From contig JBBCGK010000001.1 of assembly GCA_037200965.1 (NCBI GenBank), positions 576,001 through 640,000 on the forward strand: 64,000 nucleotides of DNA, read 5' to 3'. Source of the DNA: a bacterium (GTDB lineage: Bacteria; Patescibacteriota; Minisyncoccia; Phycocordibacterales; Phycocordibacteraceae). Every line of letters starts with the position of its first letter. Within the stretch, counting starts at the first letter, position 1. A model generated the notes under the pieces. That model saw nothing but the letters and a program-made list of their open reading frames with translations. It ran no database searches and had not been told where the DNA came from. The translations under genes were made by a program, and so were the position numbers. This document shows positions 3,108-61,169 of the stretch, piece by piece.

Positions 3108-3110
3108 GGC

Positions 3111-4712
3111 TCAGTGGATGACTGGCGAGAGACAAGCATTCGCCTCCTTCACGATATTATTCATCGTGGTTATAAGCGTACCTCCCTCTCCCCCGGAATC
3201 GGTGCTTTGCGTTTCGGCGTCCGCTATTTCGCTCGCGGAAGGCGTGGTTGAAGCAGAAAGGAATTGCTGATAGTTGAGTCCCGCCCGCGCAAGCGCGCCC
3301 GCGGCGGGAACGGAACCGTCCGCAGGCGTTACTTGCTCGGAAAGAATGCCCAGTGTCTGAAGCGAAGCGACGGCCTTCGCATCTGCGGCGGAAGCCTGGT
3401 CTATCACAGGATTCACGACCGTTTCTATCACGGCGCCCGCGTTCGCTCCTTCTTCAAAAGTGCAGGCACCGAAGACAGTATGGCTGTTGGCAGCCTCCGT
3501 GGCCGCCGTCTTTGCCGCATCTGCGGCGGCACCGATCTTCTTCCAGTCGTTCTGATATTTCGTAATTTGCGTTTTTCCTTGCTGGAGCGCTTCCGAGAGA
3601 TTGGATACGACATTCGAGACGTTCCCCGCATCGGCTGCCGCGAGGTCCGGTCGGCTGAAATAATCACTGCCGCCGCCTTGCGGTTTGGAAAGACCCAGGA
3701 AGCCGCTGCCGCCGAGCACGTTCTTGATAAGTCCCTGGAGAACGGCACCGATAATTTCGTCTATCTCGTCGGCCGAGATGACGGAGTCGATCGGGGTGCC
3801 GATCGCCTTGCTCGCGGCGTCCGCGATGACCGAGCCCGGGGTCTCGATATCGTATTCAAGACAGTTTGCACCATTGTCCTTCACGACCGGGTCGGAGAAC
3901 TGGAAGTCCATCGTGCCGTCCGGGTTTGTCGTTACGACCGGGTCGGCCACTTCAACGGTCTGCGGCGCTTGACCTTGCAGTTTGCAGTCGCCGCGCCAGG
4001 AGAGGAAGCCCTTATTCTGAGTTATTTCATCTTTGCTTTGTGTGACTGCCGCAGTCGCCCGGGCGATGAGCTCGTCACGCGCCCGCATCGCGAAGCCCAC
4101 GGGGTTATTCTGGGAATCCATCGTGAACCTGAACCATCCCGAGAGCCCGCCTTTATTGAAATCGAATCCGGAAGATGAAACCGCAACGGTCGCGCTTCCG
4201 AGCGTGCACTGGTTGAGAAGGAAGAATGAGTTGCTCGACGTCGACTTGTAGTAGTCCGCCTGGAGAAGCGCCGCCGTATTTACTTTGAAAGGCAGGTCGA
4301 GTGAGAAGTTACCGATCTGCGAGAAGAATTTCGACGCAACCTGATCGACGATGTTTCCGAGATGCACGTTCAGGTTCACCACGAACGACGGTGATCCGTT
4401 GAAACCGTTGCTCGCCCAACTGACGATGCTTTGCACCATGGCGGCCTTCACTTGCTGCACGACCGCATAAGCGAGCGGATCGAGCACATATTCTTTTATT
4501 TGGAGTGCAAGGGCGTTTTCGGACGTTACGGCATCGGCAGCAGCAGAGATCGTTTGCTTTGCGATTTCGATGAAGGTGGTGGGTGCTGAGTCGCTTGCTA
4601 TGTGCACAGTCTGTGCCTGCACGCGCGAAGAAGCGAAGAGTGTCGGGGCCGCGAGCGAAAGCCCGATGATAAAAACTGCGGCCCGGACGCGACTTGAGGG
4701 GGGTTGCGGCAT
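3111..4712 (-). CDS. secreted hypothetical protein (signal peptide, A/S/T-rich)
   Basis: 533-aa ORF with a signal peptide (MPQPPSSRVRAAVFIIGLSLAAPTLFASS). It is separated by 3-4 nt from its neighbours in the operon. Confidence 0.5.
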   Translation of the reverse strand: MPQPPSSRVRAAVFIIGLSLAAPTLFASSRVQAQTVHIASDSAPTTFIEIAKQTISAAADAVTSENALALQIKEYVLDPLAYAVVQQVKAAMVQSIVSWASNGFNGSPSFVVNLNVHLGNIVDQVASKFFSQIGNFSLDLPFKVNTAALLQADYYKSTSSNSFFLLNQCTLGSATVAVSSSGFDFNKGGLSGWFRFTMDSQNNPVGFAMRARDELIARATAAVTQSKDEITQNKGFLSWRGDCKLQGQAPQTVEVADPVVTTNPDGTMDFQFSDPVVKDNGANCLEYDIETPGSVIADAASKAIGTPIDSVISADEIDEIIGAVLQGLIKNVLGGSGFLGLSKPQGGGSDYFSRPDLAAADAGNVSNVVSNLSEALQQGKTQITKYQNDWKKIGAAADAAKTAATEAANSHTVFGACTFEEGANAGAVIETVVNPVIDQASAADAKAVASLQTLGILSEQVTPADGSVPAAGALARAGLNYQQFLSASTTPSASEIADAETQSTDSGGEGGTLITTMNNIVKEANACLSPVIH

Positions 4713-4714
4713 AG

Positions 4715-5737
4715 TTAATAGCCGTTAACGGGCGAAATGCTGAGAAACTGTGATCCGGGCTCTCCTGCGGGGACGACCACTCCCGCATCCTTGAATGTCT
4801 GTGCCATCGCGACGAACGCGTTGCGCATCGCGATGACGTCGTCAGGATACTTGGCAAGCCCGAGCGAAGTCAGGAGCGGATCGCGATCAAGCGCAGCGAG
4901 CTGTTGTGTCACTGTGCCCATGTTCGCGAGCGCGTTCGCGAGCGCGAGATGTTTCGTCGCGAGTTCCTCGGGTACCGGCACGCTGCTGAGGGCATGTGCT
5001 CCCCCGGTATAGGTCTCGGCGATCTTCCCTATCATGTCGAGCGCCTTTGTGTCGCTTCCACTTATCGCGTCTCCGAGATAGAGGAGCTCGCTCTTTTTTG
5101 AAGGGGCTGTATATCCGGCAAGCGTATTTTCAGCAGCGGCCGCGTAAGTCCGCATTGCTTCCGGGCCGCTTCCCGATACGTTCATTTGCCCGAGCGTAAA
5201 TGCATCCTGTTGCGGCACCGCGCGCTCCAATTCCGAAAGCGCGCTCGCGACGAACGTTGCCATATCGTCCGCGGAAAGAGGCGCTCCCTGATGCGCCGCG
5301 ACGTATTGCGCGAAGAATGCCTGGGCGAACTGCTCGGTGAGGGAGCCGGGAGCTGGCGCTTTCCCCGGAATGTTTTTTGCTATGGTCGAGGAAGCAACCG
5401 AGGATGCCGGTATCGGCGCCTTCGGCACGATAAGTCCCTGCGCGACTGCTTGCGCGTCCGTCATGCCCCGCCCGCCGGTGTCGGTCTTATCCGGATCCGT
5501 ACCGTAGAGCGACTCTTCCCAGTCCGGGAGGCCGTCGCCGTCGGAGTCTTTTACGGCTATGGCCTTGAGGAGATCGTCGGTCGTCCCGGCCTCCGCGTTC
5601 GACGCTTTGAAAAGATGCGGCCACTGCGGGATGAGGTACGCCGCAAACACCATTACCAGGGCAATGGCGAGCGCAACTGGCGTGCTCCATTGTTTCGTTT
5701 TGTTAGTCACACGCGTACCGTAAAGGATAGCACGCAA
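4715..5737 (-). CDS. membrane-anchored protein with thrombospondin-type-3-like Ca-binding repeat (DSDGDGLPDWEE, DPDKTD)
   Basis: N-terminal TM anchor followed by a DxDxDG acidic repeat. It is the first gene of the minus-strand operon 5737->16. Confidence 0.5.
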   Translation of the reverse strand: MRAILYGTRVTNKTKQWSTPVALAIALVMVFAAYLIPQWPHLFKASNAEAGTTDDLLKAIAVKDSDGDGLPDWEESLYGTDPDKTDTGGRGMTDAQAVAQGLIVPKAPIPASSVASSTIAKNIPGKAPAPGSLTEQFAQAFFAQYVAAHQGAPLSADDMATFVASALSELERAVPQQDAFTLGQMNVSGSGPEAMRTYAAAAENTLAGYTAPSKKSELLYLGDAISGSDTKALDMIGKIAETYTGGAHALSSVPVPEELATKHLALANALANMGTVTQQLAALDRDPLLTSLGLAKYPDDVIAMRNAFVAMAQTFKDAGVVVPAGEPGSQFLSISPVNGY

Positions 5738-5760
5738 GCCCGTTTTACCTCACTATACCT

Positions 5761-6543
5761 TCATGGTGTGTGCATAGCGCTGGCGAGGAGAAGCCATGTG
5801 GAAAGACCCAAATCTTCCGCGCGCGCCTTCTCCGGAACTTCCGCCGCAAGAAACGCATGTTGGATCGCTTCCGGTGCGGCGATTGCCTCCAAATTTCGCG
5901 CCAAAAGCTTCCTTTTATGGGCGAATCCGGCACGGATAGCCGAGAAAAAGGACTCTTCCTGGGCCGTATTCTTGAAATTAGCACGGCCGATGTTTTCTAT
6001 GGTGAGCACGGCCGAGTCTACGGCCGGAGCGGGCACGAACGCGCCTTTGGGGACCGTAAAGCGGTATTTCGGCTCGCCGTACGCCTTCACCGAAAGCGAA
6101 AGCAGGCTCTCCTTCTTGCTTCTGGCGATACGAACGGCCACCTCCTTCTGCACCAGAAGCGTCATCGAGGCGGGCTGGTGCGCGTCGGTAAGGAACCGGC
6201 GCAGGATCTCGCCGCTTATGTAGTACGGAATATTCGCCACGAGGAGATAGCGCTTCGGGAACGCTGCCGTGTCGAACGCGCGGATGTCCTCATGGATAAG
6301 CTCGAGCTTTCCTAAGCCAATCTCCGCGGCGAAGGTTTCCCGGAGTATGGGAATAAGCTCCTTATCGGTCTCGACGGCGACCACATGCCCGGCGCGCGAG
6401 AGGAGTTCCCGCGTGAGAAGCCCGGTTCCGGGACCGATTTCAAGTACGGTGTCTTTGGGGCCGATGCCCGCGGCATCCGCGATGCGTGCGGCAATCGAGG
6501 CGTGCATGAGAAAGTGCTGGCCGAGCGATTTCTTCGCGCGCAT
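5761..6543 (-). CDS. rsmA: 16S rRNA (adenine1518/1519-N6)-dimethyltransferase RsmA/KsgA
   Basis: Motifs KSLGQHFL, EIGPGTGLLT and NIPYYISG. Confidence 0.9.
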   Translation of the reverse strand: MRAKKSLGQHFLMHASIAARIADAAGIGPKDTVLEIGPGTGLLTRELLSRAGHVVAVETDKELIPILRETFAAEIGLGKLELIHEDIRAFDTAAFPKRYLLVANIPYYISGEILRRFLTDAHQPASMTLLVQKEVAVRIARSKKESLLSLSVKAYGEPKYRFTVPKGAFVPAPAVDSAVLTIENIGRANFKNTAQEESFFSAIRAGFAHKRKLLARNLEAIAAPEAIQHAFLAAEVPEKARAEDLGLSTWLLLASAMHTP

Positions 6544-6546
6544 AGA

Positions 6547-6840
6547 TTAGAAACTCCGGCGCTTTAACGCGCGAAGCAGGTCCGGCCCGTATCCCTGGCT
6601 TCGATGCCGCAGAACCAGGACGATCAGTTCGTCTTTTTTGCACCGGCGGATGGCCCGCCAGTCTCCGACCCGGAGGGAGCGATAGTCCGAAAGCGGGTAC
6701 CCGAGAGGCTTCCCGGGAAGCGCCATGCGCGCATACTGCTGTTCGATAGACGTATGTACGCACTTCCATACCGAAGCGTCGAGACTCCGCGCGTCTTTGG
6801 CAATAACCTCGCTATGATAGCTAACGCGCCACGCGCTCAT
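6547..6840 (-). CDS. type II toxin, RelE/ParE family
   Basis: C-terminal LSDYRSLRVGDWRAIRRCKKDELIVLVLRHRSQGY matches the RelE/ParE core. The start (MSAWRV) lies inside a longer ORF and overlaps the upstream antitoxin by 20 nt. Confidence 0.65.
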   Translation of the reverse strand: MSAWRVSYHSEVIAKDARSLDASVWKCVHTSIEQQYARMALPGKPLGYPLSDYRSLRVGDWRAIRRCKKDELIVLVLRHRSQGYGPDLLRALKRRSF

Positions 6841-7102
6841 CGTGCAATTTGCGCCAGAGCGCGTCTGCCTCGCCCGCGCTGAGGTATTTCGTGCCCGGGG
6901 CGGTACGTTCCTTGAGCATCTTCGCAAGCGCCCGCTGCTCTTTCGGCGTTATATATTCGAATTCTTCTTCCGCAATAGCCGCGTCAAGCATTCTGGCGGC
7001 GATGGTGGCGCGCGGAGTCCGTTCCCGCTTGGCGCGAAGGGAGAGCGCCCGCGCGGTCGACGGCGCGAGTGTCACCAGCATGCGCTCCTTGGTTGTCGCC
7101 AT
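6821..7102 (-). CDS. ribbon-helix-helix-type antitoxin
   Basis: 93-aa protein MATTKERMLVTLAPSTARALSLRAKRERTPRATIAARMLD immediately upstream of, and overlapping, the toxin gene. Confidence 0.55.
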   Translation of the reverse strand: MATTKERMLVTLAPSTARALSLRAKRERTPRATIAARMLDAAIAEEEFEYITPKEQRALAKMLKERTAPGTKYLSAGEADALWRKLHDERVAR

Positions 7103-7145: not shown

Positions 7146-10139
7146 TCACGCCTCGATGATACGTTCCTGTCCGGAATGTCTCATGAGCGCGGGATCGATG
7201 TCGTGCAAGAAGTTCGACGGCTCGGTGATAAAGTCGGCGCCGTAGATGCGGCGGATGCGTGCGAGCGTAAGCACGAGGCGTTTTTTCGCGCGCGTCATCG
7301 CGACATAGAAGAGGCGCCGCTCCTCTTCGTCGTCGTCTTCCTCGTTGCGCTCGTGCGGGAACAACCCTTCTTCAAGTCCGCTTACGAACACCAGATCGAA
7401 CTCGAGTCCTTTCGCCGCGTGCACCGTCATGAGCGTAACGCCCGTCTTCCCTTCAACGCGGTCGAGCTCGTCCTGGTCTCCCGCAAGAGCCGCGTCCGCA
7501 AGGAACGCCGCGATGCCTCCCCGCCCCGGAGTATCGTCGTAGCGCGTCGCCAGAGTAGCGAGCTCCTGGATGTTCTCGAAGCGTTCCTTCTCTTCTTCGT
7601 TTCCGTGCTCGAGTTCGGCCTTAAGCCCGCTCTTCTCGACGACGAGCCGCACGAACTCCGAAGGTGCCGCGCTTTCGGCGCTTCGCGAAAGTTCCCCGAC
7701 TATCGCTTCGAACGCCGCGACTTTCGCCTTCTCGCCCGCCCGGAGCTCGTCGCGCTTTCCTGCCGAAAGTTTCCCGAGCGTCGTCTTGCCGATGCCGCGC
7801 GTTGGCGCCTGCACCGCGCGCATCCGGTCCGCTTCGCGCGAGGGTTCAAGCGAAAGACGCACCCACGCGAGTACGTCTTTCACCTCCTTGCGGTCGTAGA
7901 ACCTCGTACCTAAGAGCTTGTACGAAATCCCTTCGGCAAGGAACGCCTCCTCGAGCGCGCGGGACTGGAAGTTAGTGCGAAACAGAACCGCGATTTCTTC
8001 CGGTGCCGTGCCGTTTCGTATCACGCGTCCCGTCTCGTGCGCGATCCAACGCGCTTCGTCTTCCGCGTTGTCCGCGACGTGGAGCGTGATCGGATCGCCA
8101 GGTGCGTTTTCCGTAACCGAGCGCTTTTCTTTCCGGCGCCGGTTTTTTTCGATCACGGCGTTCGCCGCGGAAACGATCGTCGCCGTCGATCGGTAGTTAT
8201 GCTCGAGCATGATGGTTTTCGCGCTCGGGTAGGTTTCGTCAAACGCGAGCAGGTTGTCTATCGTCGCGCCGCGCCAGCTATAGATGCAATTGTGCGTCGC
8301 GATGCCATTCGCGACGAAATTGTGTGTGCCTTCAATGTCGATGTCGTATACCCGCACTTTCCTTGCGGGGACGCGTTCAACCTTATCTACAAGGTCGTAT
8401 CCTCCCTCGGAATCAAAGACCGCCATGCCCGGCCGTACGCTTGCGGCGGGAAGGAGCGGAAGCGAATTCCCGTCCCTGAGCCTCGCCTTTTTCCCGCCAA
8501 GCCGTGCCGCACGCACGATGCTCGCGCTTGGAAACGCGACGCGAAGGCGTTCGACGCTTTCAAGCAGTGCCCCGTAACTCTTATGGGCGGATTCGAATCG
8601 CCAGCTGGCAGATCCTTTCTTTGCCGGACGCACGGAGAATCCGGCCTTTCGTAAAAGGATGCTGCCTTCCTCGTCGCTACCCACCACCGATATCCTGTGC
8701 ATTGTTGTTTCCCCGCGCCGGTCGCCGCACAACGTTATGTTGATGTTTCGCCGGTCGCTCCGGGTCGCCTGCGCGCGGTGGTGCGGATGCGCAGGAGAAA
8801 GGAAGAGGTCGTCCATAAGTTTCTTCGCACCGGACTCAGTATCGAAAGAAGCGAAGACGGAATCGATCGTTCCTTGATCATGAACGTATCCTCCGGTGCC
8901 GCTCCCCTTGCGCGCGACAAACGGGAGCGTCGGGATACCATATGAAAGGGACAGCTTGTATTCCATCACCCGTGCTGCCCGGGAAGTATCGTGTGTCCCG
9001 AGAACCCACACCGCGTCTCCGTGCTCCTGGTTGCAGCGCTGCTGGAATCCGGCCATAGCCAGGCGCTGTCCGTTCGTATAGGCGCGCGAAACGCCGAGCC
9101 GCCAGCCGACACCGTTTTTTGCCATGAGATACGTAAAATAAAGTTGCGGCATGAGTCCGAGCCGATATCCGGCGAAATGCACGTGTTCTGGCGTGCTCGT
9201 GAGGATCCGTCCCGCGGCCGTGGTTATGCGCACCAATGTGCCAGAGTGCGTCCGCTGCTTAGCGCGAATAACGCGCGCGGCGCGCGTATCGCCGCTTCCG
9301 TAGTTCGACCGAACCTCGTCGCCTATTCGTATCTTCTCGATGTTCCTTTCGGAACCGTCGGCCATTGCCACTTTCGTCCCGGCGACAAGGCATTGATCGA
9401 TATCTCCGACCACAAATACGTTCCCGTGCCGCCTGGAAAGCATGCCGACGAGCGTTCCTTGAAGCGCGTTCGTATCCTGAAACTCGTCAATGTGGAGATA
9501 GTCCCAGCGCTCCTGCGCGAGCGCACGTACGTCCTCATGCTCGCGCAGGAGCCGTACCGGAAGCGAGATGAGATCGTCGAAGTCGAGCGCTTTCTCTTCC
9601 CTCAGCGTTTTCTCATAGCGCAGCCACGCTTCGGCGACGATACGCCCCCCGAAGCTTTTGCGGCCATGCTCGGCATAGAAGCTCTCCGCGGTTTCTCCCG
9701 CTCCCTTGGCCTTCGATATGCGCGACAACACCGCTCTTGGCGAAAGTTCCTTCGTGTCGACATCAAGTTCCTTGAGAGCCTTGCCGATCGCTTTCTGGGA
9801 GTCGTCCCGGTCGAAGATGGTGAAGTGCCTCGGCACGCCGATCTTTGCGCCGTACGACTCGAGAAGCTCGCGGCCGAGCCCGTGGAATGTGGCGATGAAA
9901 GGCGGCCGGCCGCCGTGAAGAAGCCTTGAAAGCCGCTCGCGCATCTCGCGCGCGGCTTTGTTGGTAAAGGTGACGGCGAGGATCTTCTCGGCGGGCACCC
10001 CCTCCTTTATAAGGTGGTAAATCCGGGTGGTAAGCACCTTCGTTTTCCCCGATCCTGCCCCGGCAAGCACCGATACCGGGCCGGCGGTCGCGAGAACCGC
10101 CGCTTTTTGGGCGTCATTAAGGTCTTCGAGGTGGTTCAC
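7146..10139 (-). CDS. UvrD/PcrA-family ATP-dependent DNA helicase, intein-containing
   Basis: Walker A AGAGSGKTKVL and DEFQDT are present. Helicase motif III (VGDIDQ / CIYSWRGA) is split by a 368-aa insertion. C-terminal helicase motifs are intact. Confidence 0.85.
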   Translation of the reverse strand: MNHLEDLNDAQKAAVLATAGPVSVLAGAGSGKTKVLTTRIYHLIKEGVPAEKILAVTFTNKAAREMRERLSRLLHGGRPPFIATFHGLGRELLESYGAKIGVPRHFTIFDRDDSQKAIGKALKELDVDTKELSPRAVLSRISKAKGAGETAESFYAEHGRKSFGGRIVAEAWLRYEKTLREEKALDFDDLISLPVRLLREHEDVRALAQERWDYLHIDEFQDTNALQGTLVGMLSRRHGNVFVVGDIDQCLVAGTKVAMADGSERNIEKIRIGDEVRSNYGSGDTRAARVIRAKQRTHSGTLVRITTAAGRILTSTPEHVHFAGYRLGLMPQLYFTYLMAKNGVGWRLGVSRAYTNGQRLAMAGFQQRCNQEHGDAVWVLGTHDTSRAARVMEYKLSLSYGIPTLPFVARKGSGTGGYVHDQGTIDSVFASFDTESGAKKLMDDLFLSPAHPHHRAQATRSDRRNINITLCGDRRGETTMHRISVVGSDEEGSILLRKAGFSVRPAKKGSASWRFESAHKSYGALLESVERLRVAFPSASIVRAARLGGKKARLRDGNSLPLLPAASVRPGMAVFDSEGGYDLVDKVERVPARKVRVYDIDIEGTHNFVANGIATHNCIYSWRGATIDNLLAFDETYPSAKTIMLEHNYRSTATIVSAANAVIEKNRRRKEKRSVTENAPGDPITLHVADNAEDEARWIAHETGRVIRNGTAPEEIAVLFRTNFQSRALEEAFLAEGISYKLLGTRFYDRKEVKDVLAWVRLSLEPSREADRMRAVQAPTRGIGKTTLGKLSAGKRDELRAGEKAKVAAFEAIVGELSRSAESAAPSEFVRLVVEKSGLKAELEHGNEEEKERFENIQELATLATRYDDTPGRGGIAAFLADAALAGDQDELDRVEGKTGVTLMTVHAAKGLEFDLVFVSGLEEGLFPHERNEEDDDEEERRLFYVAMTRAKKRLVLTLARIRRIYGADFITEPSNFLHDIDPALMRHSGQERIIEA
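8289..9392 (-). other. intein (368 aa) inserted in helicase motif III; Cys1 (CLVAGTKV), terminal HN, +1 Cys
   Basis: N-terminal splicing block CLVAGTKVAMADG...IGDEV and C-terminal block VYDIDIEGTHNFVANGIATHN followed by the extein CIYSWRGA. No LAGLIDADG or HNH motif is recognisable in the central region. Confidence 0.7.
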
Positions 10140-23268: not shown

Positions 23269-24060
23269 ATGAAGATCGTCTCGTGGAACGTGAACGGTAT
23301 ACGTGCGGTGCACCGGAAAGGCGTCTTTCTCCCTTTCATTGAGGAAATAAAACCCGACATCCTCTGCCTCCAGGAAACGAAAGCTCAGGAACACCAGTCG
23401 GAGATAGATCTGCCGGGCTATACGGAATACTGGAACTCCGCGAAGAAGGCCGGGTACAGCGGTACGGCCATCTTCTCGAAAGAAGAAGCGCTCGACATAC
23501 GGCTTGGTCTTCCCGAGGATCTCGTGGCGAAATACGGTCTTGCGGACGACTCCTACGGTGACCCTAATACCGAAGGAAGGGTTATTACGGCCGAATACCA
23601 AAAATTCTTCGTAATCTCCGCGTATACGCCGAACTCAAAGCCCGACTTAAGCAGGCTCGGCCTCAGGCATACGCAATGGGACCCAGCGTTTCTTGAGTAC
23701 TGCAAGTGGCTTGAGGAGGAGAAGCCGGTTATATTCTGCGGCGATCTCAATGTGGCCCATACGCCGGACGACCTCGCCCATCCCACGGAGCATGAAGGCG
23801 GGCACGGCTACACTAAGGAGGAACGCGAAGGGATCGACCAGATCATAGCGGCTGGCTTTATTGACACTTTCCGTTTATTTACCAAGGGCAACGGACACTA
23901 CTCCTGGTGGAACCATTGGAACTTCGCCCGGGAGCGCAACATAGGTTGGCGAATCGATTATATATTCGTATCAAAATCTCTTGCGCCGCTTATTAAAGAG
24001 GCGGCGATACATCCGGAAATCCTGGGCTCCGACCACTGCCCTGTTTCAATAACGATCTAA
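23269..24060 (+). CDS. xth: exodeoxyribonuclease III (ExoIII/APE1 family)
   Basis: Motifs MKIVSWNVNGIRA, LCLQETK and SDHCPV. Confidence 0.9.
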   Translation: MKIVSWNVNGIRAVHRKGVFLPFIEEIKPDILCLQETKAQEHQSEIDLPGYTEYWNSAKKAGYSGTAIFSKEEALDIRLGLPEDLVAKYGLADDSYGDPNTEGRVITAEYQKFFVISAYTPNSKPDLSRLGLRHTQWDPAFLEYCKWLEEEKPVIFCGDLNVAHTPDDLAHPTEHEGGHGYTKEEREGIDQIIAAGFIDTFRLFTKGNGHYSWWNHWNFARERNIGWRIDYIFVSKSLAPLIKEAAIHPEILGSDHCPVSITI

Positions 24061-24424
24061 AGGACATAAAGGACACTTATCCCCTGCTTGCCTCTTTACT
24101 TCGTCCTTTACAAGAGTATCCTTACCTTCGGGCAGTTGTACCGTTGATCGCTCTTTAGCTCTTTGTGCGAGCAAACATCAATCAGTGAGCGCCAAAGCAC
24201 GAGACAGCCAGCCTCCGCCAGGGACGAATCCCTTACGTACTCAGGGCTTGGCCAGTTGCACGTGAAAAGACGCCCAGTTCAAGGCAATCTCTCGAAAGCC
24301 GCCAGAAACCCAGTCTCTTATAGTGAAGGACCATCAGTTCTCCCCCGTTCCCCCATTTGTGGTCCCCACTCCTTCGGGTTACAGGCGGCTTTCTCTTTTC
24401 CGTACTGTTTCCCGTGTAACTGAT

Positions 24425-28234: not shown

Positions 28235-28394
28235 GGACAAAAGTGGATAAAGGTGTTAATACTGGGGATAAAGGACAATATTTGACGCTCTGTCCACCGC
28301 GATGGTCTGTAGAATTGCAAGCAAATAGGCCCTCATTCTTAAAGCCGTGAGGTCCTCTCGGAAAATGAAGAAAGGACATAAAGGTTTTAGGCGA

Positions 28395-28436
28395 CCAAAA
28401 TGTAAAACACCCCTGACGGGGTGTTTTACATTTTGG
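28395..28436 (-). terminator. 19-bp-stem hairpin CCAAAATGTAAAACACCCC-TGAC-GGGGTGTTTTACATTTTGG overlapping the tRNA-Pro 3' end
   Basis: Perfect inverted repeat directly downstream of tRNA-Pro on the minus strand. Confidence 0.6.
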
Positions 28437-28507
28437 TCGGGGCGCCGGGAATCGAACCCGGTCATCTTGCTCCCAAAGCAAGCGTACTACCGGTATACGA
28501 CGCCCCG
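28434..28507 (-). tRNA. tRNA-Pro (anticodon UGG), CCA encoded
   Basis: Reverse complement folds as acceptor CGGGGCG/CGCCCCG, anticodon loop UUUGGGA (G37), T-arm CCGGG-UUCGAUU-CCCGG. Confidence 0.85.
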
Positions 28508-28603
28508 AGTGCAAGCAGAGTAACACGGGCCCTTAACCCTTGCGACTTTTACATTCTCCGATCAGTGCGGAAAAGCCCCGTAAGTGGTATTCTCGGGAAC
28601 GAA

Positions 28604-28674
28604 GCGGGATTAGTTTAATGGTAGAACATCAGTTTTCCAAACTGATGGCGGGAGTTCGATTCTCCCATCCCGCA
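28604..28674 (+). tRNA. tRNA-Gly (anticodon UCC), CCA not encoded
   Basis: Acceptor GCGGGAU/AUCCCGC, anticodon stem UCAGU/ACUGA with loop UUUCCAA, T-arm GGGAG-UUCGAUU-CUCCC. Confidence 0.75.
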
Positions 28675-28810
28675 CAGCGGTCAGAGACCCGTTTTTCGTC
28701 TGCGAGGCCTCGAAAATAGTTCGCAACCGCGAGGCCTGCCCGGTCGAGCTTTAGTGTTCCGCATCCGTTCCGTCTAAATTAAACCGACCCGGCAAGCTAT
28801 ACTTACCTCT

Positions 28811-29347
28811 ATGTCCCACGAGGTCCCGAAACTCAATCAGAGCGAATCTAAGGAAAAGCCGCCTGTTCTGTACCATGGAACAGCGAACGGTGATATCAAG
28901 GAGTTTGAACCACGTTCCGCGGCAGAAAGACCCGATGAAGAACCGGCGGTGTATGCATCTCCTGATCGTGAGATCGCCATTCAATCAATGGCGAATAAAT
29001 TCGTGACAAACGGCGGTATCGTAAATGGGCGTAAATTCGTATGTATTCCCATGACCCGTGAAGAATTTATAGAACAGGATCACGGTGGCACGGTGTATAG
29101 CTTCCCCAGCGATTCCTTCGAAATAAATAAAGGAATCGGACTTGGCGATAAGGAATGGGTTTCTAGAACTACTGTTAAACCCCGTGGGTTAGAGCGGTTC
29201 CCTTCGCTATTAGCAGCAATGCTCAAACAAGGAACCGAGGTTTATTTTATTAAACCCGAAATGGTCTCGGTAATTAGTAAAGCTCAAGATAGTGACCCTG
29301 AAGAATTAGAGAGGCTTCTTGGGGGTCTTGAACGGGCAGAGTCTTGA
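28811..29347 (+). CDS. hypothetical protein (island cargo)
   Basis: 178-aa ORF with no recognisable motif. Confidence 0.45.
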   Translation: MSHEVPKLNQSESKEKPPVLYHGTANGDIKEFEPRSAAERPDEEPAVYASPDREIAIQSMANKFVTNGGIVNGRKFVCIPMTREEFIEQDHGGTVYSFPSDSFEINKGIGLGDKEWVSRTTVKPRGLERFPSLLAAMLKQGTEVYFIKPEMVSVISKAQDSDPEELERLLGGLERAES

Positions 29348-29478
29348 ATCGCGTCCGACCCCATCATTTTGACCTTTCCCAAATTCGCCGTGGAGCCTCG
29401 CGGTGCCACACATGCTGTGGTTTTCATCCGTCCACGCCCGTTCACGCACAAAAGCCCGACATTCGTCGGGCTTTTGTG

Positions 29479-30804
29479 CTAGTCGGCCAGCGTGATGATT
29501 CGGTCGTTGAGAATAAGCCGATCTCTGAGGTGCTCCAGCAGCTCCCGCTTTTCCTCTCTCGTGCCGTTCTTCAGCAGATACTTGGCATACTTGCGTATGT
29601 CCATCTCCTTGGCCTCGATGGTTTCTTTGGTGCCCTCCACCTCCGCCCGCAGCTTGTTGTATCGGGACACCTCCCGCTCAATGAGGTGTCGCGCCCCGAT
29701 CTCGTCAAGGGAGATGCGGTCTATCATGGTGGCGAGCTGGTCGAGTACTTTCTCCTCCCGCAGATACGGGTTCTTGCACTGGGTATCCTTGGCCCGGGAG
29801 CAGGAATAATACACATAGGAGACGGGCTCGCCGGTACTCAATATCTTCTGCTTCTCCTGTGCCGTTATGCCGCTCCCGCAGTACCCGCACAGCAGGAGCT
29901 TGGTGAAGTTCCATTCTTTGAAGCGGTGCTTGGGGCGGTTCTCCTCGGCGATCTTTTCCTGCACGGCTTGGAAGAGTTCCTGGGTGATAAGCGGCGTATG
30001 TTTGCCGGTATACCAGTTTCCCGAGCCTCTCGGATACTCGAACACGCCGCAATAGAAGGGGTTCTTGAGCATTTTGTATAGCGTCGAGAGATTCATGCTC
30101 TTGCCGATGCGCGAGGCGAACTGCACATCCCTCTTCAGCCACCCGTGTACCTTGCGGCCGCTCCAGCGCTCGATCCCGACTTTCTCGAAGACCTGTTTAA
30201 TGATTGGCGCTCTAATAGGGTCCACCAATATCTCGCAGCGGTGATCCTTCCGAGAATCGTTGAGGTATCCCGTGGGCGCGATGCCGGGCCACAGGCCCAT
30301 CTCGGCCCTTGCACGTAGCCCGCGCTTCACATTGATGCGCTTGTTATCGTTCTCAAGCTTCGCTTGGCTCCCAAGAATCATCAGCAAGAACTTCTCGTTC
30401 GGGTTGTTGCCGAACCGCTGCCCATATGTGCGTATGTCCACCAAGTGCCTGCTATCCATTAAGTCCACGATGCGGCCGAGGTCGCCTGCGTTGCGACTGA
30501 TGCGGTCCGGTGCCCAGGTTAAGATGCCGTTGAACTTTCCAGCCCTCAATTCGTCTACGATTTCATTGAATACCGGTCGCGCTCCGGCCTCCTTGGCCGA
30601 GTGCGACTCTCGCTTCACCTCGACAATCTCCAATTTCTCTTTCTCTGCGAGCGCCAACATCTCCTTGACCTGGCTCTCGATGCTCAAAACTTGCTGCTCC
30701 TCGCTCTCTGTACTTTTCCTCGCATACAAGCAGTACCGCACCGCCTGTACCTCCACCAAGGGAGGAGCCGCCCCAAATCCGCCCTGAATCATTGCTGTTT
30801 CCAT
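29479..30804 (-). CDS. large serine recombinase (resolvase-type catalytic domain + recombinase domain + zinc ribbon + coiled coil)
   Basis: Catalytic motif [16 protein letters not shown], a recombinase domain, CGYCGS...[12 protein letters not shown], and a long C-terminal coiled coil. Confidence 0.85.
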
Positions 30805-30902
30805 ACATTTGCCGTTATTGCTAACGGGTCAATGGATGACGCAACCCCTCGTGGGTGTCCAGCGAGGGGTTGTTGGTATCTAATGCGGAATTTAGTACCT
30901 TG

Positions 30903-31934
30903 TTATTTTCTCTTCCCTGGTTTTCTCACAGGCTCGGCGTGAGGGAACTTCTCAAAGTGATCGATGACGGCTTCCTCTTTTGCAACTTGTTCTGACGCAG
31001 TACGTTTGCGCTCTTCATCCTCCTTCTCGCGGCGAGTCACCGCTTCGCGCTCCTCATCTTCCCGAATACGTTCACGCTCCTTCGCCTCGATTTCCCCAAG
31101 AACCTCGGTTGCGATTTTAAGCTCGTGTTCGTCGCCAAATTTTCGTATGTGCTCAAGCGCATCCTGGGCATACTGCTCATCCAGTAAACTTAGATATAGA
31201 CGGAATTTCGCGGGATATTCTCGCAGGGAGGACTCAACTTCTTCGGCAGAGTAGAATTGGTCACCCAAGCGGTATTCACTCGGATGTTCGCGAATAAACG
31301 CCGCGACCTCTTCGATTCTTGCCTTCGGAATAAGAACACCCGAAGCGACCAGCCCGATTTCGTGGTATGTGCTGCCGTCCTGGAAATTCGCAGTCGGGAG
31401 ATCTAATGCTTTTGCGAGCGCCTCCTCTCGATCTTGGCGAATAGGGCCGTCCCTGCGAGGCAGAGCGGGGCGACGGCTCCATCCATCGCCGATGCTCTTA
31501 TCAAGAAAATCAAAAACAAGAAGCGCGTTTTCACCCAAGATCCCGCCGTCCTCATGTTCGGATGGAAAGAATCTATCGCGATTTTGCATGAGCCTTCCGT
31601 CAGGCAGGTCCTCACTGGATATGATCGTGAATTCTGGGAGGCCAAGCTCTTCGAGACTTCCTTCCTGCCGTAACAGGTCTATGAGAACATCGTGGTCACT
31701 TTTGCCTAAGTCCTTGCCGAGCGCATTTAACTCAAGATGTGTATTGTGCCGCTCAGAGTCTATGAGTTCCGCTTCCGTTTTCACTTCTGGGTCGGTGAGA
31801 GCGTGCGCGTTCTGCTTGCGAAATCGCTTAAGCTCCTTGAACTTGTCTTGATACGAACGAACAAGACGGCCATACTTTTTCTGAGCGGTTTCCTGTGATT
31901 CGGGCCGTGGGCCAGCACCTTCAAATCCGGACAT
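30903..31934 (-). CDS. hypothetical protein with charged E/K/R-rich C-terminus (island cargo)
   Basis: 343-aa ORF. Confidence 0.45.
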   Translation of the reverse strand: MSGFEGAGPRPESQETAQKKYGRLVRSYQDKFKELKRFRKQNAHALTDPEVKTEAELIDSERHNTHLELNALGKDLGKSDHDVLIDLLRQEGSLEELGLPEFTIISSEDLPDGRLMQNRDRFFPSEHEDGGILGENALLVFDFLDKSIGDGWSRRPALPRRDGPIRQDREEALAKALDLPTANFQDGSTYHEIGLVASGVLIPKARIEEVAAFIREHPSEYRLGDQFYSAEEVESSLREYPAKFRLYLSLLDEQYAQDALEHIRKFGDEHELKIATEVLGEIEAKERERIREDEEREAVTRREKEDEERKRTASEQVAKEEAVIDHFEKFPHAEPVRKPGKRK

Positions 31935-32019
31935 ATAGACATCATACTATGACAAATGAAAAGCCGTCCTCAAACGACTTTTCGTTAGAGAACGGCTTTG
32001 GCCTGTTAGAGCTTTTGCC

Positions 32020-32304
32020 CTACTGGGAGGCCGACGCGCGGCCTGCCATGAAGAGTTTCAGGAGGAGCTCTTCGGCGCCATTTTTTCTATGCAGGTTGGC
32101 ATCAATCGCCAACCAGAGCACGCCCGAAATGGCGGCAATTGCCAGGTCGTCCTCGTCGAGATCGACGTATCCAACGACCTCTTCGGTGCCACCACTTTCC
32201 GTAATCATCCGACGCGCTTCTTCGATGTCGTCGACGTTGCAGATGGCCGCTCCGAATCCTTCATCGGCTTTCGCGCCGACCTGACGAGTGAATACGATAC
32301 CCAT
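32020..32304 (-). CDS. hypothetical small acidic protein
   Basis: 94 aa from the internal ATG (MGIVFTRQVGAKADEGFGAAICNVDDIEEA...). The longer upstream extension overlaps the neighbouring gene out of frame. Confidence 0.3.
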   Translation of the reverse strand: MGIVFTRQVGAKADEGFGAAICNVDDIEEARRMITESGGTEEVVGYVDLDEDDLAIAAISGVLWLAIDANLHRKNGAEELLLKLFMAGRASASQ

Positions 32305-32458
32305 AGATCTTCTCCCTAGCTGGATGCCCGTAAATGGGCGACAAATTGACTGTTTTCTATAGTAGCATGTAGCACATATACTGTCAAGGGTCATGCGCCT
32401 GGATTCTATATCAAAAGCCCCACACCGGATTGTGTGGGGCTGTAGCGGACGGATTGTG

Positions 32459-32923
32459 CTAGGCGTGGTGTCTCCGTTGGTTGAGCAGCACGAGGCCGCC
32501 GAAGAAGAAACCGATTCCGAGCGGAAGGTCCGCGAGGAAGTTGAGGAACCAGTTGCGCCAGGGAGCGGTGCTCCCGCCCGTATGCACCGCAGATATCGCG
32601 GCGAAGACCAGAGTGGCCATGGGCCACAGAAACATCCAATCGCGATCCGGCCCCCGGAAACTCGTGGGATGATACACACCCTCCCTCAAGAAGAGGAGGC
32701 CAGTAATCGCGCAGAGTGCACTCAGCCCGCACATCAGGGCTTCGAGTTTGCGATCGTCGTCCCCAATCCTTCCGCCCGCCGCCATCGTGCAGAGGACGGT
32801 GACGGTCAGGGCGACGCCGATACCGACGCCGATGCGCTGGGTAAACAGGGCGATTGCCCCGCCGACCAGAAGCTGGGCGAGCAGGATGCCCGCGTTCCAG
32901 TACCAATTTCTCAATGTCGTCAT
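32459..32923 (-). CDS. hypothetical 4-TM membrane protein
   Basis: 154-aa ORF with four hydrophobic helices. Confidence 0.45.
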   Translation of the reverse strand: MTTLRNWYWNAGILLAQLLVGGAIALFTQRIGVGIGVALTVTVLCTMAAGGRIGDDDRKLEALMCGLSALCAITGLLFLREGVYHPTSFRGPDRDWMFLWPMATLVFAAISAVHTGGSTAPWRNWFLNFLADLPLGIGFFFGGLVLLNQRRHHA

Positions 32924-33014
32924 GTTTGTGGCCCTCCTTAGGCCATTTGTGCTACCGTACGCAGTATTACATATCTACTTAGGAAGTCAAGGATTGCATG
33001 GCGACCCCGAATTC

Positions 33015-33539
33015 TAGGCATTTGTAGGCATTTCGCGGCCTGCCGTATGAGTGTCTAATGTGTCTAATCGGCACCTACCGAAAGTGACAGTGCGCTGTCA
33101 CTCTTTACGCCTAATTTCCTCTAAGATACCCAGCATCTGCGGTCTGGTTCTCTGAAAATGTTACGCGCCCGTACATGCCGTATTCGTGTAACATTTGTAA
33201 CATTTTGCCCTCCGGCATTGGACACGCCTGCGGGGGTATCTAACGTCCTTGCAACCCCAAAATGCAACATGCCACAAACGCCGTTTTGACGTTGCATTCT
33301 ATATCATTTTGACCCCCGACCCCCTGTCAGATTTGTAAGGTAACAGTCCACTTTCCGAACACTCGGGATAGCCCTTTTCGTGTTCGGTTTGTTCGCTTTT
33401 CCAGTCCGCAACCGCGAGGCCCACGCTCGCCACTCGTGAGACACACCCAAAACGCTAGAATACCTTGCAACTGCTTGCTGGAATCGCTAAAACGAGACAG
33501 TGTCCGATATACCCTACCTGTGTCTCATTTGTCTCATTT
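33015..33539. repeat. noncoding region with four short tandem duplications (TAGGCATTTG x2, GTGTCTAAT x2, GTAACATTT x2, TGTCTCATT x2) plus palindromes
   Basis: Tandem units at 33015-33033, 33051-33068, 33188-33206 and 33521-33539. Perfect palindrome AGTGACAG-TGCG-CTGTCACT at 33083-33102. Inverted repeat AATGCAAC...GTTGCATT at 33261-33298. Confidence 0.6.
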
Positions 33540-33770
33540 TGTACCCGACCCCGAGGCCTCGATCGGGGTTAGCGGCTACTCGCCAAAGGGCGTTGCGTTT
33601 GCCTCGCCTGGCCCAGTTCAGTACAGTGAGGGGGCACACTCTAGTGCTAGTTCAAGTGACCGAGGTGCATAAAGAAAAACCGCCTCTTGCGAAGCGGTTT
33701 AAGGTTGCGCCCTATCTTTATCCTGCCCAGCGCGGCAGTTCGATTTTTGGTTCTGTTGCCAAGCGGGTTT

Positions 33771-34532
33771 TCATCCCGCTCCGTTAATCTCCAAGAGCTC
33801 GCTCTCTAGTTCCCTAGCTATATGTGGCCAAGCCTCTTCCACGACTCCCGTTAATAGTCCGACGCGTTCTAAGTCGCGCACCATCGTTTCAACAGGGATA
33901 CTGAAGAAAAGACGACCTGATTTAGCGTAGTAACAAGGATGCGCTTCTGGGTCATGGCGATCTAGGATGTTCCATCCCTTAGTGGGACGATAACAATCTA
34001 AGATTTCCACCGTGCATTGTGGGAAGAGTTCCCCTAGCCATGCACGAAGACTCTCGCATCCCAATTCGGGATTACCGCGGAAGGGCTCATGATCTCCAAA
34101 GTGGGAAGTCCAGAGAGAAACGACCTTAGGCTCGCCGATCTTGTCGGCAACCATGCGAGCCACCTTTTGAAAGATAGCTTTCGTTTCTTCCAACCCGATA
34201 TCATGGGTCGACTTTTCTCCAAAGAGAGAGGCCGAAATCCCCCGAGCGATCAGCTGATCCAACCCACCGAAACGGAACTGTTTGGCGGATAGAAACAGAT
34301 CGCTCTTGCAGGTAAGGTCGGGGAGCCAATAGGAAGCCTCCTTTGCCTCCGTTTCCATATTGTCGCGGTCACGGAAGATACCTTGAAATCCACGAGGATA
34401 GGATTTCTCCCTCACCTCGTACCCAGCTATCTTCAATGTCTCCAGGATGCGTGGGACATACGCCTCGAATACATCGTTCGAGCGGTAAGTAACAAGTACG
34501 GTCTTAGTCATATGGTTGCCCTCCTGAGGCAT
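33771..34532 (-). CDS. hypothetical protein
   Basis: 253-aa ORF. The start may instead be the internal MTKTVLV. Confidence 0.45.
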   Translation of the reverse strand: MPQEGNHMTKTVLVTYRSNDVFEAYVPRILETLKIAGYEVREKSYPRGFQGIFRDRDNMETEAKEASYWLPDLTCKSDLFLSAKQFRFGGLDQLIARGISASLFGEKSTHDIGLEETKAIFQKVARMVADKIGEPKVVSLWTSHFGDHEPFRGNPELGCESLRAWLGELFPQCTVEILDCYRPTKGWNILDRHDPEAHPCYYAKSGRLFFSIPVETMVRDLERVGLLTGVVEEAWPHIARELESELLEINGAG

Positions 34533-35434: not shown

Positions 35435-35599
35435 AAGAAGTGCTAGACCGAGATGCCTCAGCTTTGGTCTGAGGAATTCGCCAAGGAACCTTTGAAATGC
35501 CTCACTCGGTGCAGTTCACGACTGGGGTGGGGCACAGTTAGAGATTTCGAGTCCGCAGATCTCGAAGAAGTCCTGAAAATCCAAGCCAGGATAGAGATT

Positions 35600-36160
35600 T
35601 AATACCCCAATTCCCCGCGGCTCTGCCGCGGGGTACCGCTAAGGAGGGTTCGGGAACCGTTGGTTCCCGAGATACAATACGCGCATGGCCGTCGTCCGTT
35701 CGAACCACTGCGCCTTCGACACCCACTACCACATCGTCTTTCCGGTCAAATACCGCAAAGCACTCCTGACACCTGTCGTCACCAAGGCAATTCGGGATAT
35801 CGCTGGCGATATAGCCGAACGGTACGACATCGTCTTCGAGCAGCTCGGTACCGACCAGAACCATATCCATATACTGTGCTCCTTCCATCCCAAATACAGC
35901 GGGGGAGATGTCGTACGGATGTTCAAGTCCATCACCGCAAAACAGCTGTTTGAGCGATTTCCCGAATTGAAGAAGGACCTCTGGGGCGGAGAGTTCTGGG
36001 CAGACGGCTACTATATCGCCACCGTCTCCACACACGGCGACTGGACCACGGTCGAACGCTATGTCGCTAACCAAGGAAAGACGAGCGGACAACCAACCCA
36101 ACTCACGATTCTCTGACGGCCATGCACGACTCAATACCCCGGGGCTCTGCCCCGGGGTTG
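35600..36160. mobile_element. IS200/IS605-family element (tnpA only) bounded by subterminal GC hairpins
   Basis: Left hairpin CCCCGCGG-CTCTG-CCGCGGGG (35613-35633). Right hairpin CCCCGGGG-CTCTG-CCCCGGGG (36137-36157). Both are preceded by AATACCCC. Confidence 0.7.
35685..36116 (+). CDS. tnpA: IS200/IS605 family HUH (Y1) transposase TnpA
   Basis: Motifs HYHIVFPVKYRK and NHIHIL. Confidence 0.85.
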   Translation: MAVVRSNHCAFDTHYHIVFPVKYRKALLTPVVTKAIRDIAGDIAERYDIVFEQLGTDQNHIHILCSFHPKYSGGDVVRMFKSITAKQLFERFPELKKDLWGGEFWADGYYIATVSTHGDWTTVERYVANQGKTSGQPTQLTIL

Positions 36161-36201
36161 TTTATTAGCGATTTCCGCATAGGTTAGCAGCTTTTCAAAC
36201 G

Positions 36202-60998: not shown

Positions 60999-61169
60999 AG
61001 CAAAAGGTATATAACCTGTCCACTTTCTTAGACAGATATATAAAGCATAAAAACCCTTATATACAGCTTATTTCCAGTATTACTCAACTTAGAGAATACC
61101 TTACTATACTGTCAATGTCTTTAGGATCATTCTTATAGAGGGAACTAGAACTTTATATGGGAGACCGCT

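Follow-up and report, generated by a model that had tools for sequence, protein, structure and literature searches.

A conserved module array appears to mark the end of large serine recombinase islands at tRNA genes in Patescibacteria

Large serine recombinases (LSRs) are prized as genome-engineering tools because two short sites are thought to be all that they require. For serine recombinases, regulatory sites adjacent to the crossover site are well documented. Here, we describe a gene-free stretch of 847 bp (positions 32924-33770) in a 64-kb window, by which we mean the whole piece of DNA that was analysed, from a genome of the Patescibacteria. The stretch contains an array of short modules, which consist of two direct copies of a 9- or 10-bp motif and usually one inverted copy, at the non-coding end of an island that carries an LSR gene and lies beyond a tRNA gene. 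Judged by their sequences, conserved arrays of this kind mark where LSR islands end beside tRNA genes in Patescibacteria. The array is more structured than was seen in a first-pass annotation, which was made from the letters of the window. No earlier description of such a module array was found in the literature.

The closest described systems are the res regions of resolvases, namely sites I-III of Tn3 and gamma-delta and resH of Sin and beta. Like the array, they comprise short TGT-ended motif copies in direct and inverted orientation, which are located beside a crossover site and just upstream of the recombinase operon. In Tn3 res the same sites repress transcription. In Sin, a serine recombinase, the regulatory site II consists of direct repeats arranged head to tail (PMC2428073). 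In contrast to res, the enzyme encoded here is an LSR of the integrase type, and the array extends over 400-600 bp with at least six modules, compared to 86-114 bp and two or three sites. Moreover, the period of the direct copies is 9 bp, the inverted copy follows at about 20 bp with opposite polarity, the motif occurs in several types that differ in their variable bases (NN), and its binding is putative. The attP arm sites of tyrosine integrases (P1, P2 and P'1-3 of lambda) and the repeats DR1 and DR2 of attI1 are likewise accessory direct repeats beside a core at the end of an element. A layout similar to that of attI1, in which two direct repeats are followed by an inverted pair, is found in the orthologues of one of our modules (s5) in two related loci (L016 and L017). 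However, attP and attI1 are used by tyrosine recombinases with a separate arm-binding domain, and the island contains no tyrosine recombinase. The composite SCCmec/SCC islands with their Ccr large serine recombinases are similar in that an LSR-borne island is flanked by 15-20-bp direct repeats and that extra repeats, tandem elements and relics accumulate at one site, as is the case in the window and in the loci L017, L018 and L093. Here, the elements target a tRNA gene at its 3' end or trailer, and we know of no arrays of paired 9-mers at SCC junctions. Finally, iteron origins (pSC101, pPS10, R6K) combine direct repeats with an inverted copy of the same motif in a gene-free stretch, whereas the locus described here has no initiator gene, several motif types with two direct copies each and a period of 9 instead of about 22 bp, and it is located at the end of an integrated island.

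The stretch is flanked by two open reading frames on the minus strand, which code for a membrane-like protein of 154 amino acids (aa; 32459-32923) and for a protein of 253 aa (33771-34532). Neither protein contains a Pfam domain, and when used as search handles, each matched only itself among 5.8 billion proteins. The sequence was compared with a Logan assembly (L001) and with GCA_015655515.1 (L002); 901 bases are 100% identical, so that three assemblies agree, and the gene callers placed no gene in the stretch in either of the two. Because the sequence is identical and empty in both, the repeats are not the assembly artefact that had been considered at first, and those callers missed no gene; the earlier description of the stretch as gene-free thus holds.

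All repeats listed in the first-pass annotation were found in place. Read on the plus strand, its four head-to-tail duplications are TAGGCATTTG (1.9 copies, 33015-33033), GTGTCTAAT (33051-33068), TGTAACATT (33187-33205) and TGTCTCATT (33521-33539; two copies each of the latter three), and Tandem Repeats Finder added the pair TGTTCGGTT/TGTTCGCTT (33382-33399). The stretch therefore contains five tandem duplications of 9-10 bp plus one degenerate copy. The perfect palindrome AGTGACAG-TGCG-CTGTCACT (33083-33102) is a pair of motifs resembling the unit X defined below, arranged face to face, and an inverted repeat, AATGCAAC/GTTGCATT, spans 33261-33298. This clustering is far above chance. Six perfect tandem duplications with a period of 8-12 exist in the whole window, and three of them fall into these 847 bp; the frame shared by the duplications, ACAMANNNNACACNNNNASGG, is matched four times in the window, each time in the stretch, compared to 0.12 expected matches. 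The strict motif AATGNNACA is not over-represented (six matches in the window, 5.7 expected), and five of its matches lie within 33187-33538. It is not a genome-wide operator.

The four duplications had been regarded as independent. They are real, but they are copies of one module with a common frame, which is better read on the opposite (minus) strand. In this orientation each duplication corresponds to AAATGNNACA occurring twice, followed by about 20 nt and usually by one inverted copy. The units can be aligned without gaps as CAAA-X1-X2-C, about 20 nt, X' and a T-run, where X' is the inverted copy of X. The sequence of X is AATGAGACA in module s5, AATGTTACA in s3, AAsCGAACA in s4, ATTAGACAC in s2 and AAATGCCTA in s1, and the degenerate module s6 contains AATGCAAC. 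Of 27 modules, 20 have 18-22 nt between X2 and X', although the sequences of these loops are unrelated. For the 20 well-defined modules, X' is complementary to X1 at 159 of 180 and to X2 at 158 of 180 positions; the variable bases NN are the same in X1, X2 and X' of 17 modules.

All modules of the stretch are located on the minus strand. Module s5 (AAATGAGACA twice, 21 nt, TGTCTCGTTTT; 33489-33542) has orthologues in L016 and L017, in which every copy, four or five in number, was switched together from GAGACA to GGGACA/TGTCCC. Module s4 (AAGCGAACA/AACCGAACA, 19 nt, TGTTCGG; 33352-33402) is of a type that was also found in L016 (964 and 4643) and L017 (4036 and 5640). It is followed by s6 (AATGATATAG/AATGCAACG, 21 nt, GTTGCATTTT, preceded by GGGGGTCGGGGGTC; 33257-33311) and by s3 (AAATGTTACA twice, 21 nt, CGTAACATTTT; 33155-33207), the X of which is identical in L016, L017 (twice), L018 and L093. 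The tandem 9-mers of s2 (ATTAGACAC twice; 33051-33068) belong to a TAGACA type that is also present in L016 (900-930). Module s1 (33012-33034) consists of the tandem 10-mers AAATGCCTAC/AAATGCCTAG without an inverted copy, and its type AAATGCCAA recurs in L016, L017 and L084. An extra inverted copy of X, GTGTCTCA, is located at 33437-33445.

The proposed position at the edge of a recombinase island was confirmed by a 19-nt direct repeat, AGT(T/C)CGCAACCGCGAGGCC, which is named R in the following. Its first copy, R(a) (AGTTCGCAACCGCGAGGCC; 28718-28736), begins 42 nt beyond the 3' end of the gene for tRNA-Gly(TCC) (28604-28675, plus strand) and would be the tRNA-proximal boundary with an att-like core of the attL type; the second copy, R(b) (AGTCCGCAACCGCGAGGCC; 33403-33421), would be the far boundary with an attR-type core. 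The two copies are identical in 18 of 19 positions, and the 14-mer core of the repeat occurs exactly only in these copies within the 64 kb. They bracket a DUF6886 gene and a minus-strand operon that codes for proteins of 154 aa (32459-32923), 94 aa (32020-32304) and 343 aa (30903-31934) and, as last gene, for the LSR (29479-30804; Pfam Resolvase 1.6e-21, Recombinase 5.7e-13, Zn_ribbon_recom 5.1e-09). No Pfam match was obtained for the three small operon genes. Based on these repeats, the stretch is assigned to the att-proximal non-coding end of an integrative island of about 4.7 kb (28737-33402) beyond tRNA-Gly(TCC). The modules s4, s6, s3, s2 and s1 lie just inside the far boundary, where s4 directly abuts R(b), and at least six modules are found within 410 bp of R(b). 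Outside the boundary are s5, a degenerate third copy of R (CCCCCTCACTGTACTGAACTGG; 33613-33634, minus strand), which is homologous to R motifs at position 546 of L016 and 5278 of L017, and a terminator. By its sequence, the region to the right of the boundary (33422-33640) is what remains of an older end of this type.

This architecture is found again in related loci. Six loci were fetched via exact proteins and 80 from metagenomes, and all of these (L numbers) were oriented with the LSR on the plus strand. More than 8000 homologues of the LSR above E 1e-30 exist in Patescibacteria, and their sources include Minisyncoccia, Paceibacterota and Kaiserbacteria. On the tRNA side, synteny is kept in close relatives and includes the genes for exonuclease III and the CCA-adding enzyme. 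The R motif follows the stop codon of the LSR gene, beside a tRNA gene read in antisense, in eight of them (L014, L016, L017, L018, L020, L022, L023, L027). It recurs upstream, just before the arrays, and is present at both ends in L016 and L017. The gene-free gaps of these two loci contain the same types of X (GTTACA, CGAACA, GAGACA, TAGACA and GCCAA) on the LSR-sense strand, with R motifs before them. A position weight matrix (PWM) of the tandem pair yielded 38 matches in 894 kb compared to one in shuffled sequence, and the picture obtained with nhmmer agrees. All 35 strong matches are on the LSR-sense strand; three weak ones near the threshold of 16 bits are on the other strand. Strong matches were always located beside or after an att-like R core or the end of a pseudo-tRNA. 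Altogether, modules with the same few NN types were found in about 13 related LSR loci of Patescibacteria, including seven in which the LSR is only 58-62% identical to that of the window (L042, L053, L069, L079, L084, L093, L098). A scan of a genome collection with a conserved 26-nt pattern was too specific and matched only a genome already in the set. No DNA similarity to phage or plasmid records was detected. A scan of viral contigs with CAAAATGNNACAAATGNNACAC gave 11 matches, which look like coding repeats or unrelated phage promoter regions, and no convincing array.

The genes between array and LSR differ from locus to locus. The cargo upstream of the LSR is unrelated and comprises a diversity-generating retroelement (DGR; L014), pilin-like (L017), restriction-modification (L093, L019), CBASS (L042) and HicA (L018) genes. 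No protein of 40-400 aa is common to the array-bearing elements, and the search for a shared small DNA-binding protein was likewise without result; the LSR, by which the loci had been defined, is the sole common protein. Locus L093 is most instructive with respect to the extent of an element. It contains two nearly identical arrays (26-310 and 3950-4310), each of which starts with a degenerate antisense 3' end of tRNA-Gln and is followed by cargo and then by an LSR gene (1839-3173 and 8001-9302). The right ends of the elements (...catttgaattagYatgtat, followed by TGGCTG) abut the next array or the intact tRNA-Gln gene. It follows that the array forms an integral part of each element and is located across the crossover core from the recombinase gene. 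The elements stack in tandem. One of the two array copies contains a whole additional GTTACA module of 64 bp that is absent from the other, which means that modules behave as discrete units; the X sites are conserved where the intervening sequence has diverged. The elements in L053 and L069 are minimal, with the array lying within about 200 nt upstream of the LSR start. Locus L017 contains four copies of R, and a remnant of an LSR C-terminus (5060-5200), followed by an R motif, precedes the intact LSR gene. This remnant and the tandem elements of L093 are indirect evidence of element turnover at the respective sites. In L018, R follows the LSR and is itself followed by another array, and L016 contains a second, partial array. 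No circular contigs or circular forms were found among the 86 loci.

Several observations on these relatives are added here. In L014, the DGR (5452-6862), consisting of a reverse transcriptase gene and a bAvd accessory gene, lies directly upstream of an LSR gene whose product is 88% identical to that of the window and takes the place of the window's cargo. The CBASS genes of the L042 island (2909-4780) code for a SMODS cyclase and a SLATT effector, and a LOOT RNA (RF03000, 83 bits) is located on the opposite strand just upstream of its LSR gene (7714-7834). Between array and LSR start codon, L053 (290-350) and L069 (195-250) share a conserved inverted-repeat sequence, GGGACGCTCTrGACTCCTTT...GCGTCATTC, which may be a leader or an operator of the recombinase gene. 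In L098 (13905-14013), a 13-bp direct repeat, CAGTTTGACTAGA, flanks a single module, and the whole unit is situated inside a hairpin CAGGCAG...CTGCCTG-TTTT, as if 96 bp had been inserted into the loop of a terminator. The window itself contains a similar module on the other strand (24058-24111, plus strand), in which TAAAGGACA occurs twice and is followed by 27 nt and GTCCTTTA. It is located directly after the exonuclease III gene, the stop codon of which overlaps with the first unit, and its score does not reach the PWM threshold; this could be a family member that has diverged, or the similarity could be accidental.

We tentatively favour, with less than even confidence, the interpretation that the array is a res-like set of recombinase-docking sites that would organise or gate recombination and perhaps also act as an operator. 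From the module grammar, its conservation and orientation, the position at the island end and the DNA-like symmetry documented below, we infer that the modules would be docking sites for a protein, most likely the LSR. The LSR is the likely binder because it is the sole protein common to the array-bearing elements and because the motif resembles half-sites beside crossover cores. R in L016 and the TGGCTG core in L093 each lie between X-like motifs of the same polarity, whose AAAT ends point to the core (by eye), and X' (TGTCnCATTT) resembles the TGT-ended half-sites of the TGTCYnnTA type that are bound by resolvases. Regulatory sites beside a crossover site might thus organise or gate recombination as in a res region. 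In addition, the LSR could repress its own operon through the array, since the latter is located just upstream of the operon promoter.

A number of points weigh against this interpretation. LSRs of the integrase or phage type are not known to need accessory sites, and their att sites comprise about 40-50 bp. The inverted pair X2...X' has its ACA/TGT ends directed inward, which is the polarity opposite to that of the R-centred site and of resolvase sites. The tandem period of 9 bp corresponds neither to a turn of the helix nor to the attP/attB offset of 5 bp that is known for LSRs. Also, a single protein that ignores NN does not explain the identity of these bases within modules; together with the concerted change of s5, this identity suggests either that NN is read, which would imply several specificities, or that the copies are homogenised. 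Because the LSR served as the handle for collecting all loci, the association with this enzyme is biased by sampling. Furthermore, no array was found within 2-8 kb upstream of the LSR in the close relatives L014, L022, L023 and L027, the far ends of which may lie beyond the fetched DNA, and in L042 a single module is parted from the LSR by xseAB and an island of defence genes. A variant of the docking-site interpretation, which we consider unlikely, is that LSRs of Patescibacteria may not be simple two-site integrases. A long array of docking sites with several specificity types beside a tRNA-derived core might gate the direction of recombination without a separate directionality factor, or it might provide a multi-site landing pad for further elements.

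The modules could also be operators or promoter/insulator sites for a protein other than the recombinase, such as a TrmB-like helix-turn-helix regulator of the host or a nucleoid protein, which would control transcription into the island. We assign a low probability to this explanation, although the array ends 10 nt upstream of the -35 box of the operon promoter, a promoter-like sequence, GCAAGGTATTCT, that is shared with the promoter region of tRNA-Gly lies inside it, and a TrmB-like gene is located 900 bp away. Strict spacing and DNA-type symmetry would suit any dimeric or oligomeric DNA binder. However, no regulator gene is common to the array-bearing elements, and the TrmB-like neighbour is absent from the other loci; it is found, like a nearby IS200 element, in this genome only. 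The motif is not used elsewhere in the window, which makes a global regulator of the host unlikely. Nor is the array consistently a promoter region, given that the cargo genes after it in element 1 of L093 and in L016 are encoded on the opposite strand.

The first-pass annotation had offered three options for the stretch, namely an origin with iterons, a region of arm-type recombination sites and a locus for a non-coding RNA, and among these an array of putative protein-binding motifs adjacent to a recombination site fits best. The option of a non-coding RNA fared poorly in the scans for covariance and structure. Rfam yielded nothing in the stretch at the gathering score; at E<=10 the best scores, 12-17 bits compared to cut-offs of 37-46, were at chance level, and there was no match in the arrays of L016, L017, L042, L093 and L098. 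RNAalifold gave zero consensus pairs for the conserved block that precedes the modules (GCGG..GGGTTAAGTACCC); this block was rejected as an RNA gene and is better explained as the 3' end of a pseudo-tRNA, i.e. an att half-site. Mean folding energies of 47 candidate tandem-pair segments from the arrays were -15.2 kcal/mol for the sense and -15.5 kcal/mol for the antisense strand. Mispairs between X and X' comprised four G·U and eight A·C in the 20 modules and thus displayed no wobble bias on either strand. In the s5 orthologues of L016 and L017, X abuts X' with a spacer of 1 nt (GGACA-C-TGTCC), which cannot form an RNA hairpin. Complementarity is kept between NN types, and symmetric DNA sites explain this equally well. 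A fixed distance between X2 and X' with unrelated loops is as predicted for a fixed protein geometry, in contrast to terminators or free RNA loops, and the symmetry of the modules is DNA-like rather than RNA-like.

It is nevertheless conceivable, though quite unlikely, that the array is transcribed and that each module forms the 3' hairpin and U-run of a small RNA or a leader terminator/attenuator, whose duplicated arm would allow alternative pairing. TTTT follows the inverted copies in s3, s5, s6 and many relatives, a -10-like sequence, GTAAGGGTATTCT, precedes single modules by 60-100 nt in L042, L079 and L084, all modules have one orientation, and a few of them (L053, L084) contain sense-only G·U pairs between X2 and loop. 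The stretch also folds better than shuffled sequences, on both strands (z = -2.1 and -3.0). Besides the results of the scans, the architecture argues against this: a G+C-rich stem, a loop of 3-8 nt and a U-run, as expected for intrinsic terminators, are combined only at 33677-33700, whereas the arms of the modules are rich in A+T and their loops comprise 18-22 nt.

Alternatively, the repeats could be non-functional debris, that is, stacked remnants of att half-sites and element ends that were left at the tRNA site as elements integrated repeatedly, were partly deleted and accreted in tandem. The three copies of R in the window (28718, 33403 and the degenerate one at 33613), the four copies and the LSR remnant in L017, the second partial array of L016 and the unequal arrays of the tandem elements in L093 are in accordance with such a history. 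We consider this explanation improbable, as the grammar and a constant small set of 9-mer types are retained in loci whose LSRs share only 58-62% identity with that of the window and X sites are conserved amid diverged sequence. Moreover, the copies of the s5 orthologues changed together, while debris would decay independently.

Weakest is the proposed iteron-type replication origin of an excised circular element, in which direct repeats would initiate replication and the inverted copy would autorepress: it is highly improbable, although Rep-iteron plasmids such as pSC101 and pPS10 classically combine direct and inverted copies of one motif in a gene-free stretch, because no Rep or initiator domain was found among the island genes scanned against Pfam and none is common to the elements, because at least six sequence types of 9-10-bp units with two direct copies each and a 9-bp period contrast with the three or more identical repeats of about 17-22 bp at helical phasing that characterise iterons, and because DnaA boxes (by eye), plasmid or phage similarity and circular contigs were all missing.

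If a widespread LSR family indeed carries a conserved, ordered array of extra sites beside its core, this would be a new way of regulating these enzymes. A cis-acting grammar would also be available for the first time for mobile islands of the candidate phyla radiation, a group in which mobile elements are poorly known and the islands carry defence cargo. If the landing-pad reading is true, the array would be part of an integron-like platform based on a serine recombinase that stacks DGR, CBASS, restriction-modification and toxin-antitoxin cargo beside tRNA genes. At the very least, the tandem-pair motif offers a practical means of locating island ends in these genomes.

The remaining features of the stretch are related to the flanking genes. 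The hairpin AAACCGC...GCGGTTT (33677-33700), which had been taken as part of the repeat system, has a stem of 10 pairs followed by TTCTTTATGC on the minus strand and is instead the intrinsic terminator of the gene for the 253-aa protein. A GC-rich inverted repeat, CCCCGA-N8-TCGGGG (33549-33568), contains a motif similar to GGGTCGGGGT, which in other loci is found in front of GAGACA/GCGACA modules. The leader and a sigma-70-like putative promoter of the gene for the 154-aa protein occupy 32924-32990 (minus strand), with the -35 box TTGACT (32990), 16 nt and a TG-extended -10 box AATACT (ending at 32963); the ribosome-binding site (Shine-Dalgarno) is AAGGAGGG (32932-32939). The promoter-like motif GCAAGGTATTCTA (33456-33468, minus strand) occurs in the same form 10 nt before tRNA-Gly. 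More generally, GTAAG(T)GGTATTCT was found three times in the window, namely before tRNA-Gly(TCC) (28580-28593, plus strand), in the array at 33456-33468 and in a divergent intergenic region (61093-61104, minus strand), and conserved copies also precede modules in L042, L079 and L084. The motif probably serves these bacteria as a promoter element of the -10 region.

Several other identities were considered for the modules and rejected. Sigma-70 -35 and -10 boxes are not matched by the spacings of the tandem pair in most modules (by eye; GAGACA-18-TATATC was obtained from s5 alone), and neither TAnnTTTG promoters of the Bacteroidetes type nor DnaA boxes fitted (by eye). Target-site-duplication footprints of excised transposons were dismissed since the duplicated units share frame and flanks and are conserved between genomes. 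When X' of one module and X1 of the next were regarded as crossover-type sites, the spacers varied from 7 to 80 nt (by eye). Ends of IS200/IS605 elements or repetitive extragenic palindromes were also rejected: the modules bear no relation to the left- and right-end hairpins CCCCGSGGC-TCT-GCCSCGGGG (35613 and 36136). These hairpins belong to a complete IS200/IS605-type element (35590-36165), which contains a Y1 transposase gene (35685-36116, plus strand) without a TnpB gene; they are subterminal and near-identical, CCCCGCGGC-TCT-GCCGCGGGG (35613-35633) and ACCCCGGGGC-TCT-GCCCCGGGGT (36136-36158). On the tRNA side of the island, a perfect 22-nt inverted repeat with a 4-nt loop, CGACCAAAATGTAAAACACCCC/GGGGTGTTTTACATTTTGGTCG (28392-28439), overlaps the 3' end of the tRNA-Pro gene (28434-28507, minus strand) and runs downstream; it is probably the terminator of this gene.

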